Positions 5,641 through 50,393 of a stretch of DNA of 64,000 nt are shown here, in pieces. The DNA lies in IMG/VR virus record IMGVR_UViG_3300048620_000017, positions 6,005 to 70,004 of that record, one strand, 5' to 3'. The translations under genes were made by a program, and so were the position numbers. This DNA is from a virus. A model generated the notes under the pieces. That model was not told where the DNA came from. It worked only from the letters and a program-made list of their open reading frames with translations, and searched no databases. Every line of letters begins with the position of its first letter. Within the stretch, counting starts at the first letter, position 1.

Positions 5641-7077
5641 TCAGCTCAGGGTCACGATGATGTCGTTCGGCGAGACCGTCGGCACCTGGTCGATATCAAC
5701 GTTGATGTCGAAGAGATTGGGGACGGCCGCCACCATGCTCTCGCTCGACACATTCGGCGTGGTCGAGACGATGTATGTTCCGGTGCCGCCAGTGCCTGTG
5801 CCCAAGGCCGTGATTGTGGTGCCGACCTTCAATGCGCCGGAGGTGTCGGAAATGACCTGACCGACGGCCAGGGTGCCCGAGGCGACGGCCGAGACAGTCA
5901 GCGTATTGCCGGCGATAGCCCCGGTGAACACAGCCGCGGGATTATTGTTCGAACCTATCTCGATCGAGATGATCTGCGCCCACGAGCCGAGGGCGGCCAC
6001 TGGTGCGTAGAACCGGCTGGCGAACAGTTTGGTACCGATCTTGGCGCGCGGCCCTCCGTCGCCCCCGGCAAACGCCGTGACGATGGCATTCTGGATCTGG
6101 GTTGCGGCATCGGCCGGAACCAGGTTCGAATTCACGATATTGACCGCGAACAGGATCGCCAGCGGATTAGGGATCTCGAAGCTCACCCGATAGGCGGGGT
6201 ATGGCGGGACATACTGCGGGCTCTGGTCGTAGACCGTGACTGTCGTGTTGCCGTTGTAGGCGCATCCCGGAGCTTTCCGGGTCCAGATCGCCTTGGCGAT
6301 GTCGTTGGCATTGCCGCCAACCACGGCGACATATAGCGAGTTCGGATAGAGCGAGACGCCGCCGATGGTCTGAACGTTGTTGCTGACGTTTTCGGTGACG
6401 AACGCATCGATGACATTGGGGACTGCGAGCACCGCGCCCAATACGGACGGAAGCGAGCCTTGCGAGTTCAGCGCGACCGAGGCGGCGCGGCGTGCCTCGA
6501 AAGCGGCGCGACCCTCGACATTGTTGCCGAGCACGCCGTCATCGGGATTGTTGATGGAATCCCACCCGGGGATCGCCCGGTAAATCTGGTTCAGGCTGCC
6601 GGCGGGGCAAGGAATTGGGCCGACCACCAAGCATTCAAACGGCAGGGTGACAGTGCCGCCGGCGCCGATGACGCCATCTTCCGTGCACAGATACTGGTTG
6701 CCATCGGCGGCCAGCGCCAGCGAGCCGGAAGGGATCGAAACGCCAGGCAATCCATTGCAAACTGCTTGCACGACGGTCGGCTGAGACGGATTTCGTTCGA
6801 GGAAGTAGATGCGCGCGATCGCATCCTGCATCCGGCCAGTCGCAAAAGCCGGATCCACCTGGTTGGTGAATTTCAAGAAGGTCGCGTTGACCTCGTCGAT
6901 CACCGCCGTTTCGCTCGTCGCGAGCTGGCCCTGCGGCGTGTCGAGCGCCGGGTTTAGGCCACCGCCGAAGGCTTCGTTGATGTCCTCCGTGACACCGGCA
7001 AGCACGTCAGCGGCAGAAGGGATCAGGAATCCCGTATCGGTCCACTGTGGCGGCGGAACGTTGGTGGTATCGACCAT
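5641..7077 (-). CDS. Baseplate J-like protein
   Basis: [30 protein letters not shown] motifs; gene position. Confidence 0.88.
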
Positions 7078-18454: not shown

Positions 18455-18889
18455 CTACTGGTTTGGCCAGGGATTGAAGTTGCGGCGCGGGCCTGGGACG
18501 TAGCGCATGGTCCGGAACGGGGACGTCATCGCCCACCACATCGCGCCGAATGGCGTCGACATGAACCAAGCGCTGTTCGGCGTCGTCGGTATGCTGGCCG
18601 TTACCGAAACCGAGCCTTCTGTGGCCTGCGTGATCGGTCCGGCCAAACCGGTTGCTCCGGCGCCCGCTCCGGTCGGCCCGAACAGTTTCTCTGCAACATG
18701 CGCGACCATGAGGTTGAGCAGCTGCGTCTGCAGCGCGGCTGTGCTGACGGGGCCGCCGCCATCGTTCCGGTTGAACTGCTCCGCGATCGGCAGGATCAGG
18801 TTCGTCACCTGGTCCTCTGTCAAAGAAGGGCTGAATTGCGGGAAAGTGGCAGCCCAGGCCGTGTAGTTGAAAGTTACCTGAACACCCAT
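18455..18889 (-). CDS. Head-tail adaptor (DUF4054-like)
   Basis: FPQF, LLNLMVAH, ATEGSVSV, WFMSTPFGAMWW motifs. Confidence 0.85.
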   Translation of the reverse strand: MGVQVTFNYTAWAATFPQFSPSLTEDQVTNLILPIAEQFNRNDGGGPVSTAALQTQLLNLMVAHVAEKLFGPTGAGAGATGLAGPITQATEGSVSVTASIPTTPNSAWFMSTPFGAMWWAMTSPFRTMRYVPGPRRNFNPWPNQ

Positions 18890-19033
18890 GATGTACCTCC
18901 GGCGTCGCCGCTTCCCCGCTACATGGAACCGGGCCGATACCGGCCGCCCCGCACGGGCTCTTCCAAGGATCGAGCGAGCAACATTGTCCCCCTAGCCGGC
19001 ATTGGGAGTGGAAGCGCGGGGCGATCTATGGTG

Positions 19034-19459
19034 CTACGCGTCCTGCTTGAAAGCCTGGATGCCGCGCGGCAGATTGTTCGGGTCGATGGGCTCGAAGCCG
19101 GATTTCTGGGCCTCATGCTCCTTGATGAAGCCTTCGACCATGTCGGTTTCGGAATGCGCCCAGATCAGGTTGTTCTTGACCGCATCGAGGTCGTGGTTCT
19201 GAGCAAGCCACTTCTTGAAGAACTCGGCGTCAACGCCGGGGGTCAGCGCGAAGCTGCTGCTCTGCGCGGCAGGCGCCGGCTCGAGGCGACGATCGAAGCG
19301 GCGGCTGTAGCCCTTGACGACCTTCTCGGCGACGACCTTGGCGCGCTTTGACTTGCGAAAGCCGCCGCCGGCGGTTGGTTCGTTTACATCCTCCATCTCG
19401 TGAAGGCGAAGAACGAGGCCATGCGGGAGCTTGCAGGCGACAGTCACGGTATCGGGCAT
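19034..19459 (-). CDS. Conserved head-module phage protein
   Basis: TVACKLPHGLVL...LTPGVDAEFFKKWL motif; strong RBS. Confidence 0.75.
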   Translation of the reverse strand: MPDTVTVACKLPHGLVLRLHEMEDVNEPTAGGGFRKSKRAKVVAEKVVKGYSRRFDRRLEPAPAAQSSSFALTPGVDAEFFKKWLAQNHDLDAVKNNLIWAHSETDMVEGFIKEHEAQKSGFEPIDPNNLPRGIQAFKQDA

Positions 19460-19479
19460 CGAATGTACTCCGGTTGATC

Positions 19480-19529
19480 AAAGAAAGATGGACTGGCGGA
19501 GGGCGGCTGGGACCGCCTCTCCGCATCTA
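19480..19529 (-). terminator. Probable intrinsic terminator of the RNA cassette
   Basis: GCGGAGAGGCGG/CCGCCCTCCGC hairpin (19496-19524) followed by CATCTTTCTTT. Confidence 0.6.
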
Positions 19530-19535
19530 AGGGAG

Positions 19536-19835
19536 CTAGCAGCGCCGCCTGATATCGATGAGCGAATGACCATCGGTCTGCAGCGAAAGCGCGTAGACGG
19601 GGCCCAGGACGCTCCTTGCGGTCGCTCTGTCGCGAATAACCTTCTCGCCCTCGCGATGCAGCGCGACATGGTCGACCGCGACTGCGAAATCGGGCAGCAT
19701 GTGGCTTGGCTGGAGGTCAGTCGATGAGGCGTAGACACCATCGAATCGATAGCTTGAGGCCGTCGATGGCATGATGAAGGCGAGCGCCAAGGCTACCAGG
19801 CCAAAGCCGACGAAGATGAATGATCGAAAGCGCAT
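19536..19835 (-). CDS. Small exported/membrane protein
   Basis: MRFRSFIFVGFGLVALALAF signal-like N-terminus; last gene of the RNA cassette. Confidence 0.6.
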   Translation of the reverse strand: MRFRSFIFVGFGLVALALAFIMPSTASSYRFDGVYASSTDLQPSHMLPDFAVAVDHVALHREGEKVIRDRATARSVLGPVYALSLQTDGHSLIDIRRRC

Positions 19836-19886
19836 TTTCAGTCCTTTCGGTTGGGTTTGCCGAGATGGACCCGCTCGGCCGGGATT

Positions 19887-20240
19887 TCAGGCGAGCGCCT
19901 CGTCGACGACGCGGTACGGGCAGCGCAACAGCGCCGCGATCGCGGTCCGCCCTTTGCCCATCGCCGCCAAGCGCCGGATCTCTGCAACCGAGCTGACATT
20001 CGTCGCAGGCGAAGGCGCTGCAACATCGTCAACTAGAACATCGGCCAGAGGCGCCGGCTCTGTCTCAGCGGCCCGCTCTCGGGCATACTGGCGAGTGCCG
20101 CGCCTGATGTTGTAGCGGGCCGCCAATTGGCTGGGATAGCTCTGTGAGACGTTGAAGTCATAGGCGATCTGCGCCACTGGCACGCCGGCCACGTATTGCT
20201 TCAGCAGCGCTTGCCGCTGTTCCTCAGTCATCCGCGGCAT
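19887..20240 (-). CDS. Double helix-turn-helix protein
   Basis: N-terminal GVPVAQIAYDFNVS and C-terminal GKGRTAIAALL HTH-like segments; RBS AAGGGAG; start at 20240. Confidence 0.75.
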   Translation of the reverse strand: MPRMTEEQRQALLKQYVAGVPVAQIAYDFNVSQSYPSQLAARYNIRRGTRQYARERAAETEPAPLADVLVDDVAAPSPATNVSSVAEIRRLAAMGKGRTAIAALLRCPYRVVDEALA

Positions 20241-20265
20241 GCAAACTCCCTTGTTAAGGTCACCA

Positions 20266-20362
20266 GGCCCGCGACAGGAATCGAACCTGCATGGGATCTC
20301 GCTGCAGCGAGAGAACCGGCGGGGGACTAGCCCGCTGCGTCTACCTATTCCGCCACGCGGAC
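20266..20362 (-). ncRNA. Class II (Leu-type) tRNA-like RNA with aberrant anticodon loop and no CCA
   Basis: GTCCGCG/CGCGGGC acceptor, GCG-GAATAGGTAGA-CGC D arm, GCGGG-CTAGTCC-CCCGC arm, long variable arm, GCAGG-TTCGATT-CCTGT T arm. Confidence 0.8.
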
Positions 20363-20374
20363 CTGGTGCCTTTC

Positions 20375-20443
20375 TGGAGCGGATGCCAGGTGTCAATCCT
20401 GGCTCAGCGCCTATGGAACAGGCACCTCTCACGGAGCATCCGC
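20375..20443 (-). tRNA. Non-canonical 69-nt tRNA-Gly(UCC) with reduced D arm
   Basis: GCGGATG/CATCCGC acceptor + U73 + CCA; GTGCCT-GTTCCAT-AGGCGC anticodon arm; CCAGG-ATTGACA-CCTGG T arm. Confidence 0.78.
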
Positions 20444-20446
20444 GAA

Positions 20447-21178
20447 CAAATTATGAGGACCCGCTCAGCGATACCGAACGGGCGGCGCGCCGAGCGAGTC
20501 CCCTGGCTCCCCTTGCGGGAACCGTCGCAAGGCTGCGACTGCACGCGCCTCGCTGTCCTGGGAGGACCTCTGAAACTGTCTGGCTTGTAGCCTCCTATTG
20601 GAGAGCCATGCCCGCCGGTTTTCTGTTCGCCTCCATGCCCGGCTGCACCGGAAACAGGCATGGTCACGGCCGGGGAGTGTGCCGGCGCTCTCAGGGTCTC
20701 GAAGCCGGTCGGGGGAGGGATCAAAGCTTCGGACTGGTACACCGCCCGATCACCCTCCCCCATCTCCGGGGGTTTATATCGCAGCCAGACCGGCGTTGGA
20801 TTGCCGCGTTGTCGTCTCCCGCCCGCTATCCCAGCAGGCCTCGAACCTGGCATCTCGTTGCCCTGTCGGGCGAATAGGTTGGCGGGTGCCGGGTTAACTC
20901 CCCACCGAGCGATTTCTCGACCCGACTCTGCCTGTCCGCTCTGCGCTTCGTTACCGGACCCAGGGTCATCAGCTCTGCCGTCGCGAATGGCTTCAACGCT
21001 GGTGCGCACCCTCAAAACTGTTGCCCGGTCTCCCAACCGGGCTGGCCGCCGGGCTCTCCCATGGAAGAGCTTTTCAACAATCGGGGCGCGGCGGCTTCCC
21101 CTCCTATTATTCGGCTTGGGCGACAAGGTTTTCTGCAGACGTCATTTCAGCTGTAGTCTGCAAAGGCATTCGCCCAAT
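20447..21178 (-). ncRNA. Candidate large structured ncRNA (~730 nt) between tRNAs
   Basis: Many hairpins and junctions, G-U pairs that work only on the minus strand, T-loop-like GGTTCGAGGCC, no credible protein ORF. Confidence 0.65.
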
Positions 21179-21180
21179 TT

Positions 21181-21257
21181 TGGTTGCGGGGGTCCGATTT
21201 GAACGGACGACCTCCAGGTTATGAGCCTGGCGAGCTACCGGGCTGCTCCACCCCACG
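21181..21257 (-). tRNA. tRNA-Met(CAT), initiator (fMet) type
   Basis: CGTGGGGTGGAGCAGCCCGGTAGCTCGCCAGGCTCATAACCTGG...TTCAAAT...CCCCGCAACCA; C1:A72 mismatch; encoded CCA. Confidence 0.95.
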
Positions 21258-21266
21258 AAATCGCTT

Positions 21267-21306
21267 TGGTGCCATAATGGTTACAATCCGGCACCAATGG
21301 TGTCAA
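21267..21306 (-). promoter_or_regulatory. Sigma70-type promoter of the RNA cassette overlapped by a repressor operator
   Basis: TTGACA (21306-21301), 17 nt, TAACCA; operator TGGTGCCA-TAA-TGGTTACA at 21267-21285. Confidence 0.65.
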
Positions 21307-21312
21307 GCGGTG

Positions 21313-22407
21313 TTAGACGCCGACCATCTGCGAAATGCCCATCGGTTGGCGCACGATCGCGCCCCAGGTGCCGCTGGTCATCTTCTTCTTCCAGGACGAC
21401 AGCGCGCGGACGATCGGATGAGCGCGGAGCTTCTCGTTGAAAGCGCAATAGCCGGTCTGCTGGCCTTCGACGGCGTCAGCGATGAGCTGGACCGTATTTC
21501 CGGCCGCGATGCCCACAGGATTGACGGAGGTCAGCGCGCCATACTGCACCGCCGAAACGACCCGGAGACTCGGGAAGTTCTTCTTGAGCAGATCCTCGAC
21601 GTTGACGTTGAACGAGTTGGTCGCGGTCATTGCGAGCTGCGAACCCGGGTCCAGTGCCAGCGTCATCTTGGTGTTCTGGTCGACGAGGCCAGCGGTCTGG
21701 GTGACAAGCTGCAGCCAGAGCGACTGGATGTCGGCATAGATTTCGTTCGCCGTGGCGACGATCTGGCCGCTGTTGATCCACTTCACGCCGCCGTAGGCCT
21801 TCGGCGCCGGGGTGATCGGCGCCGACAGGTTCGGATCGTTGAGCAGACCATAGTTCTGCAGGCCCTGCACGCCCTTGAAATAGGTCGTGTTCAGGAAGCG
21901 GGCGAGCACGGTGACGCCGGCGCCGTCGACCTCGCTGACCCAATTGACGCGGCCCAGGCCAGCGCGCTCGACTTCCAGCTCGCCATATTCGGAGATGACC
22001 TGGAAGAGATAGGACTGGCGCTGCGGCCAGTTCATGTTCGCGCCGGCATGGCCGTTTTCGTTATAGTCGCCATAGCTCGACACTTCGCCGGTCTGCTCGA
22101 CAACCGGGAACATGGCCGTCTGATCGATCCATGTGCCCTTGCGGGTCTCGCCGAAGATCTCGGCGGCCTTCGTCGGGGCGAACAGGATGCGATAGACGTC
22201 CGGATCGACGAGCGTCGTCAGGAACGCCGGAATGCCGGTGTTCGCCGAGGTCGAGAGTGCCGGCTGCGCATCCATCGCGAGATAGTTGGTGCGGTACGGC
22301 TCGACGACATAGGCACGAGCGTCGGGAAGGTAGATGCCGGCCTGCTCGAACATTGGGCGATGCTGCGCCCAAGCTGAGGCGGCCTGGTTGAAGTCGTGGA
22401 ATTGCAT
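21313..22407 (-). CDS. Major capsid protein (DUF2184-like)
   Basis: FPVVEQTGEVSSYGD, YFKGVQGLQNYGLLNDPNL, GTWGAIVRQP; RBS GAGGAG. Confidence 0.93.
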   Translation of the reverse strand: MQFHDFNQAASAWAQHRPMFEQAGIYLPDARAYVVEPYRTNYLAMDAQPALSTSANTGIPAFLTTLVDPDVYRILFAPTKAAEIFGETRKGTWIDQTAMFPVVEQTGEVSSYGDYNENGHAGANMNWPQRQSYLFQVISEYGELEVERAGLGRVNWVSEVDGAGVTVLARFLNTTYFKGVQGLQNYGLLNDPNLSAPITPAPKAYGGVKWINSGQIVATANEIYADIQSLWLQLVTQTAGLVDQNTKMTLALDPGSQLAMTATNSFNVNVEDLLKKNFPSLRVVSAVQYGALTSVNPVGIAAGNTVQLIADAVEGQQTGYCAFNEKLRAHPIVRALSSWKKKMTSGTWGAIVRQPMGISQMVGV

Positions 22408-22472
22408 GGTGGTTCTCCTCACAGACCGCCGGCTTCAGGCCGGGCGAATGGTTCGAGGTTGATGGGAGGGGT

Positions 22473-23423
22473 TTAGCCCTGCGGCCAGGAACTGATCTTC
22501 ATCAGCTCGCCCGGCTGGGCGAAGGAACGCACGGTCCACTTGGTCTCGACGTTGGTGGCTGCCGTGAGAGCGGCCGAGCTGACGACGGTGTTGACGTCGA
22601 CGGCATACGTACCAGCGCCGCCGGCGGGACCGGTGAGCTGCTGCGTGATGGTGGTGGTGGCACTGATGCCGGTACCGGTGAGCGTGTCACCGATGCCGAA
22701 CACACCAGCGATGGTGCCGCCGGCGGTGAAGACGCCATAGGTGCCCGAAATCGCCGTGCCTGCGGCGACGTTCTGGCCCGGGATGCTGACCGAATACGTG
22801 CCGATGCCGCCGGGAGTGCCGGAAAGCTGAGACACGATCTTGGTGCCTGCGACGACATTGACGCCGGAAATGGTCGTGCCGGGATAGACGGTGCCAGCGC
22901 CGACTGCGGAGACATTCAGCACATTTCCGACGATCGAGCCGGTGAAGCTGCTGGTCGCCGCGGCGATCGAGCCGGCCGACGTGGTCGCGCCGTTCGGCGA
23001 GCCGGTAGCAGCTGCGCTTGCAGTGCCGTCGGCATAGTTGGCATAGACCTTCTGTCCAACCTGAGCCGGCGTGGCGCCGCCGTTCTTCATCCAGAAGTCG
23101 CCTTCATTGAAGACGGTGACCGGGAAGCCGGCAGGAACCAGCATCGAATATTCCTGCAGGTAGACCTCGATCAGGCCCTGCTGTTCGCGATGGATGAAGC
23201 CCGCGACCGGGCCACTGCCGAAGTTGTTGACCACGGCCGGCGCGTTGTCGCTGTCGAGCTGGCTATAGCTCAGCCAGGCGAAGCGGCCGACGATGGCGCC
23301 GAGAGCGCCGCAGACCAGCGCGCCAGCGGCGGCAAGGACGGTGGTGCGAGGATTGGTGGAAGCGAAGTCGCCCTCGACAGCCGGGGCTGGGTTGTAGGCG
23401 GCTTGCGTCTGAAAACCAGACAT
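22473..23423 (-). CDS. Capsid decoration/cement protein with two inserted modules
   Basis: PAVEGDFASTNP, GFIHREQQGLI, EGDFW, ETKWTV motifs; upstream of capsid. Confidence 0.8.
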   Translation of the reverse strand: MSGFQTQAAYNPAPAVEGDFASTNPRTTVLAAAGALVCGALGAIVGRFAWLSYSQLDSDNAPAVVNNFGSGPVAGFIHREQQGLIEVYLQEYSMLVPAGFPVTVFNEGDFWMKNGGATPAQVGQKVYANYADGTASAAATGSPNGATTSAGSIAAATSSFTGSIVGNVLNVSAVGAGTVYPGTTISGVNVVAGTKIVSQLSGTPGGIGTYSVSIPGQNVAAGTAISGTYGVFTAGGTIAGVFGIGDTLTGTGISATTTITQQLTGPAGGAGTYAVDVNTVVSSAALTAATNVETKWTVRSFAQPGELMKISSWPQG

Positions 23424-33188: not shown

Positions 33189-33390
33189 ACAATTGCAAGG
33201 AAGGACGGCGATCGTCGGCCCGATCATCAACGAACGATGACGAAAGAACCGACGAAACCGACTGATTTTTGAGGGGGTTGCCCGATGCGCACAGAAGAAT
33301 CAGGCTGCATGTTTTGTGCCTTCCCCCCTGGCATTCTGTCAAGTGACATTTGCAACCGTTTCGGCACCATCCCCTACCACGGAGAGACCA

Positions 33391-49761: not shown

Positions 49762-49796
49762 TTTCGCTGTGAATTATTTTGCGCTACCGCCGTCAT

Positions 49797-50393
49797 ATGA
49801 AGAACGGTATCAAGCTTTTCCGCGAGAAGGCTGGGCTCAGCAAAGCCGAGCTGGCGCGCCGCATTGGCACTAACCGCCAGCAATTGGGGCGCCTTGAAGA
49901 AGGCGAGCGAAAGCTGTCGAAGGAATGGGCCACGAAGATCGCCACCGTGCTCAAATGCACCCCGCAAGATCTCTTATTTCCTGAGCTTGCACGTATCGAC
50001 ACCACCCGCTTCAACAATGTGTTCGAGATCGCGAGCGGCACGGGAAGCCCCCCGGAATCGCCCGGTCTTGCCATCGAGAACGAGTTCCTGGCGCGGATGC
50101 TACCTAATGCAACCCGTCACAATCTGCGGTTCATGATGGTCGATGCCTATCAGGCAAACAGCATCGTCACCAAAGGTGATGCGCTTGTCATCGACATGGA
50201 CGACAACGAACCGAATCGACCGGGCCTTTACGCCCTCGATATCGCCGGCGTGGTGCAGTGGAGATACCTTTCGCCCACCACTGCCGGGCTCATACAGGTG
50301 CACAGCGAAAACCCGGCTGGAGCCGGCGAAACCGTCAAACCCACGGAATTGAAGGTCATTGGGCGTGCTAGGCTGAGGATATCCACACTCTGA
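49797..50393 (+). CDS. CI-like repressor (XRE HTH + degenerate S24 domain)
   Basis: IKLFREKAGLSKAELARRIG...; C-domain has GD..VID and SENP but lacks GDSM and VKR. Confidence 0.9.
   Translation: MKNGIKLFREKAGLSKAELARRIGTNRQQLGRLEEGERKLSKEWATKIATVLKCTPQDLLFPELARIDTTRFNNVFEIASGTGSPPESPGLAIENEFLARMLPNATRHNLRFMMVDAYQANSIVTKGDALVIDMDDNEPNRPGLYALDIAGVVQWRYLSPTTAGLIQVHSENPAGAGETVKPTELKVIGRARLRISTL

Follow-up and report, generated by a model that had tools for sequence, protein, structure and literature searches.

What kind of genetic element lies between the major capsid gene and the next head gene of a temperate Mesorhizobium phage, and is it a unit in its own right or a passenger of the late operon? 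The question is raised by a stretch of 64,000 nucleotides (nt) from IMG/VR virus record IMGVR_UViG_3300048620_000017 (positions 6,005 to 70,004; the whole stretch is called the window here), whose source is a Mesorhizobium-type prophage. An earlier note on this DNA had described positions 19,480 to 21,306 of the window as a self-contained, repressor-controlled RNA cassette. Our analysis suggests that this cassette is probably a mobile island of tRNA and non-coding RNA genes (an "RNA moron") of temperate Mesorhizobium phages, located in a lineage-specific cargo slot. Phage morons made of tRNA and non-coding RNA genes are a known kind; new here is a variant with three RNA elements outside Rfam and a narrow distribution.

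Layout and mobility of the island

All parts of the island lie on the minus strand, which is the late-gene strand, between the major capsid gene (21313-22422, minus strand; phrog_264, E-value 5e-65; TAA stop at 21315-21313) and the next head gene (19034-19459, minus strand; phrog_2085). They follow each other in the order CTTGAC -35 box, operator, tRNA-fMet, RNA modules, mini tRNA-Gly, tRNA-Leu-like element, gene for a double helix-turn-helix (HTH) protein and gene for a small protein. Every part that the earlier note had listed was located where it had been placed, on the minus strand.

The full set was also found, in the same order, on a second and unrelated Mesorhizobium phage backbone (L095). 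There, the operator, tRNA-fMet, block 1, c2/b2, mini tRNA-Gly, Leu-like element, HTH gene and small protein are located between methyltransferase and radical-SAM genes on one side and a Gp13-like capsid module on the other. Since a complete cassette is present on a different backbone, the cassette is a unit that moves. Besides L095, shortened versions of the cassette were found at about ten further loci (L096/L097, L075, L098/L099, L100-L104, and L086). No terminal inverted repeats were found at the cassette ends. Searches of IMG/VR and of genome and metagenome collections with patterns for block 1 and the mini tRNA returned only close relatives, and covariance models of the mini tRNA-Gly (R1) and of module c2 (R2) revealed no wider distribution in 150-genome samples (both models within the genus, R2 also within the family).

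In 37 of the 46 related phages that have both flanking genes, the capsid gene is separated from its neighbor by only 7-367 nt, consistent with a moron, that is, an insert between conserved genes that is missing from relatives. Cargo of 1.0-3.2 kb occupies the slot only in the closest clade, and its content differs from member to member. A moron is also expected to have its own promoter and terminator. In this respect, the CTTGAC box is kept without a -10 box; L095 has a canonical terminator, and the one in the window is weak. The description as self-contained holds in part. The cassette moves between backbones as a unit, but it is co-oriented within the late operon and no terminator follows the capsid gene, so late read-through must also cross it.

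The slot cargo of the closest clade is diverse. L001 and L086 carry tRNA-fMet, a spacer, and a mini tRNA. L013 (7300-8065), a deletion derivative, carries PadR-like genes in the opposite orientation ahead of a mini tRNA-Gly. In L005 (7282-9118), L029, and L057, a PAS-histidine kinase and a response regulator (receiver) lie behind a broken tRNA-fMet, and in L005 a mini tRNA-Gly comes after them. L002 and its kin, as well as L084, carry an XRE regulator and a SulP transporter, and the same pair in L003 (7784-9913) is followed by a mini tRNA-Gly.

The promoter box and operator at the head

The head of the island begins with a -35-like TTGACA (CTTGAC box; 21306-21301, minus strand), which can be read directly six bases past the capsid TAA, agreeing with the earlier placement just after the capsid stop. 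It is followed by a lone extra operator half-site (21290-21297, minus strand) and by a 19-nt operator palindrome of the TGTAACC-N5-GGTTACA family (21267-21285, minus strand). This palindrome is specific to the phage. The window contains 11 sites against 0.18 expected, a count reached by 0 of 100 shuffles, and in three Mesorhizobium genomes the motif is restricted to the prophage-bearing contig. Ten of the sites are in the early/regulatory half (33-61 kb), where most closely follow -35-like boxes that head operons, and the cassette site is the only one in the structural region. Three sites are arranged around an HTH_3 (Cro/CI-type) gene (49779-50393), whose predicted CI-like product is the obvious candidate and the likely binder of the operator.

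In cassettes on two phage backbones, CTTGAC precedes the operator by 10-16 nt, and 7-21 nt separate the operator from tRNA-fMet (nine bases in the window). This kept arrangement is the best evidence for a genuine promoter-operator head. Because the head carries the phage's own operator, expression of the island is predicted on induction and not in the lysogen. The earlier note had proposed that the operator overlaps the -10 box of the promoter. The operator proved to be a real, phage-specific palindrome, but there is no consensus -10 box at the proper spacing.

The lack of an acceptable -10 box would be expected if the island were passenger cargo without a promoter of its own, present only in the late-operon transcript, with the operator blocking leaky transcription in the lysogen rather than switching a promoter, much as the stoperators of mycobacteriophage L5 serve as roadblocks. 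Such an arrangement would suit the co-orientation with the late genes, the missing terminator after the capsid stop, and the dependence of the downstream head and tail genes on transcription that crosses the cassette. However, it leaves unexplained why the operator has CTTGAC beside it on two backbones, even at sites that are not behind a capsid gene, why the L095 copy has a canonical terminator of its own, and why the same operator heads early operons near -35-like boxes. We consider passenger cargo an unlikely explanation, and we favor a head at which a putative promoter is gated by the operator.

Five early genes, all with an operator site upstream of them, share a conserved leader motif, CCYTACCACGGAG, which stops 7-9 nt short of the ATG. 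Its copies are on the plus strand at 33372, 37627, 39335, 40256, and 60633, and may represent a shared translation or regulatory signal. Pairing of the cassette RNA with this leader motif was rejected, as it was no better than in shuffles.

The initiator tRNA and the two tRNA-shaped elements

The first RNA gene behind the operator is tRNA-fMet (CAU; 21181-21257, minus strand). ARAGORN calls it as tRNA-Met, and it folds into a cloverleaf that scores 56.1 bits with the Rfam tRNA model, above the gathering threshold of RF00005 (29 bits). It carries the marks of a bacterial initiator, with a C1xA72 mismatch, G-C pairs at 30:40 and 31:39, and an A-U pair at 29:41, exactly like the host initiator. 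The assignment as tRNA-fMet was therefore upheld. The anticodon stem-loop is identical to that of the host initiator. Compensatory changes between cassette copies occur in the T stem and at pair 27:43, indicating that the tRNA is under selection. In the explanation favored here, which taken as a whole we regard as probable, it is a working initiator tRNA.

The second element is a tRNA-Gly (UCC) of 69 nt with a truncated D arm and an encoded CCA (20375-20443, minus strand), which we call the mini tRNA-Gly. It has no Rfam match at E-values up to 1, and thus falls outside RF00005, and default ARAGORN is silent; ARAGORN calls tRNA-Gly(UCC) at this position only in relaxed or mitochondrial mode. 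Model R1 recovered 17 copies. Across nine distinct sequences, 98% of cells are paired and six pairs changed on both sides, and the covariation in 13 copies was reached by 0 of 500 shuffles. Judged by covariation, this is a tRNA-shaped family and not a canonical tRNA, and the earlier proposal of a mini tRNA-Gly is supported by both the relaxed or mitochondrial call and the covariation.

The predicted tRNA-Gly identity set (G1-C72, C2-G71, G3-C70, U73, and C35/C36) is present and is kept in intact copies. The acceptor stem is near-invariant, U73 and the CCA are kept in most copies, and the anticodon is UCC or CCC. The D region comprises just 12-13 nt, and the T loop is the canonical UUCGA in some copies and AUUGACA in the window. 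Every cargo-bearing member of the capsid clade has the mini tRNA-Gly directly before the next head gene, whatever the cargo, and distant relatives with short capsid gaps are without it. A literature search for D-arm-truncated phage tRNAs found nothing specific. Shortened or altered D/T regions are shared with the D-arm-reduced mitochondrial tRNAs and with the non-proteinogenic tRNA-Gly of staphylococci, the latter also of Gly type. Unlike the mitochondrial tRNAs, the mini tRNA-Gly is located in a bacterial phage, and unlike for the staphylococcal tRNA-Gly, we know of no link to cell-wall synthesis.

Two further mini tRNA-Gly copies come from outside this phage type, one beside LigD, together with a c2 copy and an HTH-gene fragment (L077, 7461-7800), and the other beside Ku and a UvrD-like helicase (L079, 5951-6019). 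These copies near genes for non-homologous end-joining look like cassette remnants outside the capsid slot.

The third element resembles a class II tRNA-Leu (20256-20373, body 20267-20362, minus strand). It reached 38.8 bits with the Rfam tRNA model in a local search and was not listed in the whole-window run at gathering scores. Its D arm matches the host tRNA-Leu genes and its T arm is canonical, and the earlier reading as a Leu-type tRNA-like RNA accordingly stands. The element has no CCA, and its acceptor stem is lengthened by a helix of 8 bp. In the window, the anticodon loop reads CUAGUCC, and position 37 is a pyrimidine. Both the body and the flanking helix are preserved in four copies; the acceptor stem shows one compensatory change, and in the extension an A-U pair is replaced by G-U. 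The four anticodon loops all differ (CUAGUCC, CUAAUCA, CUCACAA, and UUAGAAC), as do the variable arms. Selection acts on the shape, but apparently not on a decoding anticodon.

The acceptor-extension helix (20363-20370 / 20258-20266) is built from the operator half-site word (GGCACCA / TGGTGaCC), which may be a coincidence or a DNA-level site.

The RNA modules of the spacer

Between tRNA-fMet and the mini tRNA-Gly lies a spacer of 737 nt (20444-21180, minus strand). Its long open reading frames (ORFs) have no Pfam or PHROG match. Rfam returned nothing but tRNA matches (whole window at gathering scores; 18500-22500 at E-values up to 1), and a blastn search against 50,697 phage records gave tRNA-Met matches only. 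Relative to shuffles, the spacer folds with a z-score of -5.6 on the minus strand and -2.3 on the plus strand.

The earlier note had seen here about 730 nt of structured RNA, and as a single RNA this did not hold up. The spacer is a mosaic whose modules appear and vanish independently between copies, with block 1 in 5 copies, c2 in about 7, and P1 in nearly all. The spacer is shorter in L001 (714 nt) and longer in L086 (1040 nt), and other Mesorhizobium prophages contain individual modules on their own. These observations bear on the idea that the two tRNAs are separated by a single large, ornate non-coding RNA. GOLLD (RF01998) and ROOL (RF03087) are large non-coding RNAs of prophages, and the spacer is like them in being structured, strand-asymmetric, non-coding RNA of about 740 nt that adjoins tRNA genes in a prophage. 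It differs from them in matching no Rfam covariance model over the region searched, in its unequal lengths, and in consisting of independent modules, some found singly elsewhere, rather than one architecture. We regard a single RNA of this kind as most improbable.

Module c2 (20566-20693, minus strand) is a three-hairpin RNA domain of about 125 nt that is under selection at the RNA level. In an alignment of six copies with 31 pairs, 95% of cells are paired compared with 30-49% in slid controls, and six pairs changed on both sides compared with 0-1 in the controls. Model R2 found only 2 further Mesorhizobium prophage loci. A lone, well-kept c2 copy (129 bits with R2) is located between antiterminator-like and large terminase genes in another Mesorhizobium prophage (L078, 8352-8478).

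The block 1 core (20884-21011, minus strand) is a conserved stretch of 128 nt that is at least 90% identical in 5 cassettes on 2 backbones, with its flanks replaced. It is non-coding, since 1-nt indels break the frame. Its conserved G-U pairs make sense only on the minus strand, and few compensatory changes were found. A very stable fold for block 1 was rejected (z-score +1.0). Just downstream, a T-arm-like relic (a stem with a UUCGAGG loop) at 20835-20850 may be a remnant of a lost tRNA.

The remaining modules vary more in their occurrence. Module a (21043-21180, minus strand), a long irregular hairpin with a linker, is variable between copies; it is about 78% identical in L086 and in a tRNA-Met-linked stretch of G480, and absent from L001 and L095. 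P1 (21012-21042, hairpin at 21023-21042, minus strand) consists of an 8-bp stem with the GNRA loop GGGA, followed by AACAGUUUUGA. Across its copies, the loop is always GNRA (GGGA, GAGA, or GAAA), and P1 may be a leaky terminator or a processing hairpin. Block 2 (20498-20567, minus strand) is common to L001, L013, and L098. Before the mini tRNA lies a GC hairpin of 16 bp (20455-20503, minus strand), followed by AUAAUUUGUU, and the stretch 20450-20590 folds with a z-score of -4.95. P1 is duplicated in L086 (reverse strand), about 70-180 nt after tRNA-fMet, and L001 resembles a deletion between the two P1 copies of L086. A high-copy intergenic repeat of the REP/RIME type was rejected, with at most 2 matches per genome and matches in 6 of 202 Mesorhizobium genomes.

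A mosaic in which large parts were replaced or deleted could also be what is left of a decaying phage tRNA array with recombination scars, in which only tRNA-fMet and perhaps the proteins function and the rest is neutral filler whose GC-rich DNA forms hairpins by chance. The T-arm-like relic, the ordinary stability of the block 1 core, and the existence of damaged copies are in line with decay. Yet neutral filler would not be expected to show the covariation of the mini tRNA-Gly and c2, nor the identity that block 1 retains across two backbones despite its replaced flanks. In one relative, moreover, the spacer differs at about 2.7% of sites compared with about 15% of third codon positions in the adjacent HTH gene. 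A relative's substitutions were uninformative on the minimum free energy fold of the single sequence (7 unpaired, 3 pair-keeping, and 5 pair-breaking). We consider decay quite improbable, and the mobile island of selected RNA genes remains the reading that we favor.

The two proteins and the end of the island

Behind the RNA genes lies a gene for a bipartite double-HTH protein of 117 amino acids (aa) (19887-20240, minus strand), with an N-terminal match to Pfam HTH_23 (E-value 2.5e-5) and an invariant C-terminal HTH motif. AlphaFold predicted two three-helix domains joined by a disordered basic linker, in agreement with the double HTH first proposed. A Foldseek search of this model against the PDB gave no significant match; the top rows, none of them significant, were bipartite DNA binders (a CRISPR-repeat-binding protein, a Tc3 transposase domain, and paired and double homeodomains). 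Against a close relative, 13 of 14 substitutions are at third codon positions, showing that the HTH gene is a real coding gene. The protein has 17 homologues, and all those with a source name are from Mesorhizobium. RNA modules of the cassette were found upstream of the HTH gene at every homologue locus examined. One cassette variant (L100, 803-890) has a canonical tRNA-Ser(UGA) with CCA right after the HTH gene, showing that the island does not always carry the same tRNAs.

The second protein, of 99 aa (19536-19835, minus strand), has no Pfam or PHROG match. Its signal-peptide-like N-terminus is consistent with the small exported protein predicted for this ORF. Homologues were found in L095 (45% identity, same position) and in L100, and the protein accompanies the modules at three loci. 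Both protein genes have good Shine-Dalgarno boxes. At the end of the island, the fold shows a hairpin (19496-19524, minus strand) that is only weakly terminator-like. The hairpin itself is present as claimed, but the U run is 11 nt downstream and a terminator scan gave no call. The L095 cassette ends in a canonical GC hairpin with a U6 run.

Expression and proposed working

Expression evidence came from contig-level data. One metatranscriptome run holds all sampled block 1 words, and a contig of 243 nt from it is identical to 20819-21061 (depth 2.3). Nothing else from 18900-21700 was present in that run save tRNA cross-matches. The contig hints at a stable RNA.

We propose that the island is probably an operator-gated moron of RNA genes, also crossed by late read-through, in which the tRNA-shaped parts act as processing points. 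In the lysogen, the island would be silent or low, with the CTTGAC box gated by the phage's global operator, to which the CI-like HTH_3 protein would likely bind. Once the operator is freed, the island would be transcribed, and transcripts running on from the strongly expressed capsid gene would cover it as well. The tRNA-shaped parts would then be excised by RNase P and by enzymes of 3' processing, which would release the tRNAs and the intervening RNA modules and separate the downstream mRNA. The likeliest pay-off would be to sustain translation, or to blunt a tRNA-targeting host defence, in lytic growth.

Several observations weigh against this proposal. A promoter scan found no sigma-70 -10 box of acceptable match and spacing after TTGACA, and the distance from the -35 box to the operator is not fixed, ranging from 10 to 16 nt among cassettes. 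The P1 GNRA hairpin and its U run could end a short tRNA transcript just after tRNA-fMet. By textbook rules, RNase P would act poorly on an extended acceptor helix such as the one in the Leu-like element. The metatranscriptome contig could come from DNA carry-over. There is no escape signature in tRNA-fMet, because its anticodon loop equals that of the host. In addition, some relatives have broken copies, with tRNA-fMet truncated and the mini tRNA damaged in L005/L057 and a large stretch deleted in L013, which indicates that parts of the island are dispensable.

Comparison with known systems

In the T4 tRNA region, common precursors are processed into eight tRNAs and the stable RNAs C and D. 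The island is similar in placing phage tRNAs beside small stable RNAs, such that tRNA processing would free the neighbors. Unlike the T4 region, it belongs to a temperate phage, has one canonical tRNA, an operator at its head, and two protein genes, and is mobile between backbones, and its RNAs are unrelated to those of T4 in sequence and in Rfam family. The morons of lambdoid phages are extra genes with their own promoter and terminator between conserved late genes. The island resembles them as an insert between two conserved head genes that is missing in most relatives, with a promoter-like box and, in L095, a terminator. Unlike lambdoid morons, its cargo consists mainly of RNA genes, headed by the phage's own operator.

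The reason why phages carry tRNAs is debated, and has lately been tied to defences that destroy or block tRNAs. Phage tRNAs have been found to counter tRNA-targeting defence (PMC10264068, PMC11555353), and the toxSAS toxin FaRel2 reads the acceptor stem and acts on tRNA-Gly (PMC11245113). The island encodes classes that are targeted (initiator, Gly, and Leu), and the mini tRNA-Gly keeps a near-invariant Gly-type acceptor stem and CCA like the target of FaRel2. In contrast to counter-defence phage tRNAs, the anticodon loop of tRNA-fMet equals that of the host. By this analogy, we put forward a link between the island and tRNA-targeting defence as a hypothesis only.

In a more specific form, which we find doubtful, the island would be a portable counter-defence kit of tRNA-shaped RNAs that includes an extra initiator tRNA. 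The mini tRNA-Gly, with its Gly acceptor stem and CCA, might be a spare substrate or bait for toxSAS or GNAT toxins, and the Leu scaffold, with its closed acceptor and varying anticodon loop, might be bait for anticodon nucleases. Block 1 and c2 might be new classes of phage RNA set free together with these elements, and the HTH protein the island's own regulator.

The island joins a normal initiator tRNA, two conserved non-canonical tRNA shapes, and two RNA modules missing from databases. Its recurrence in two phage backbones makes it a defined object for deletion, expression, and assay. If the odd tRNAs are charged or act as decoys, they would widen the range of what phage "tRNA genes" can be; if not, the island would still be a clean case of RNA-gene cargo in a hot spot behind the capsid gene.

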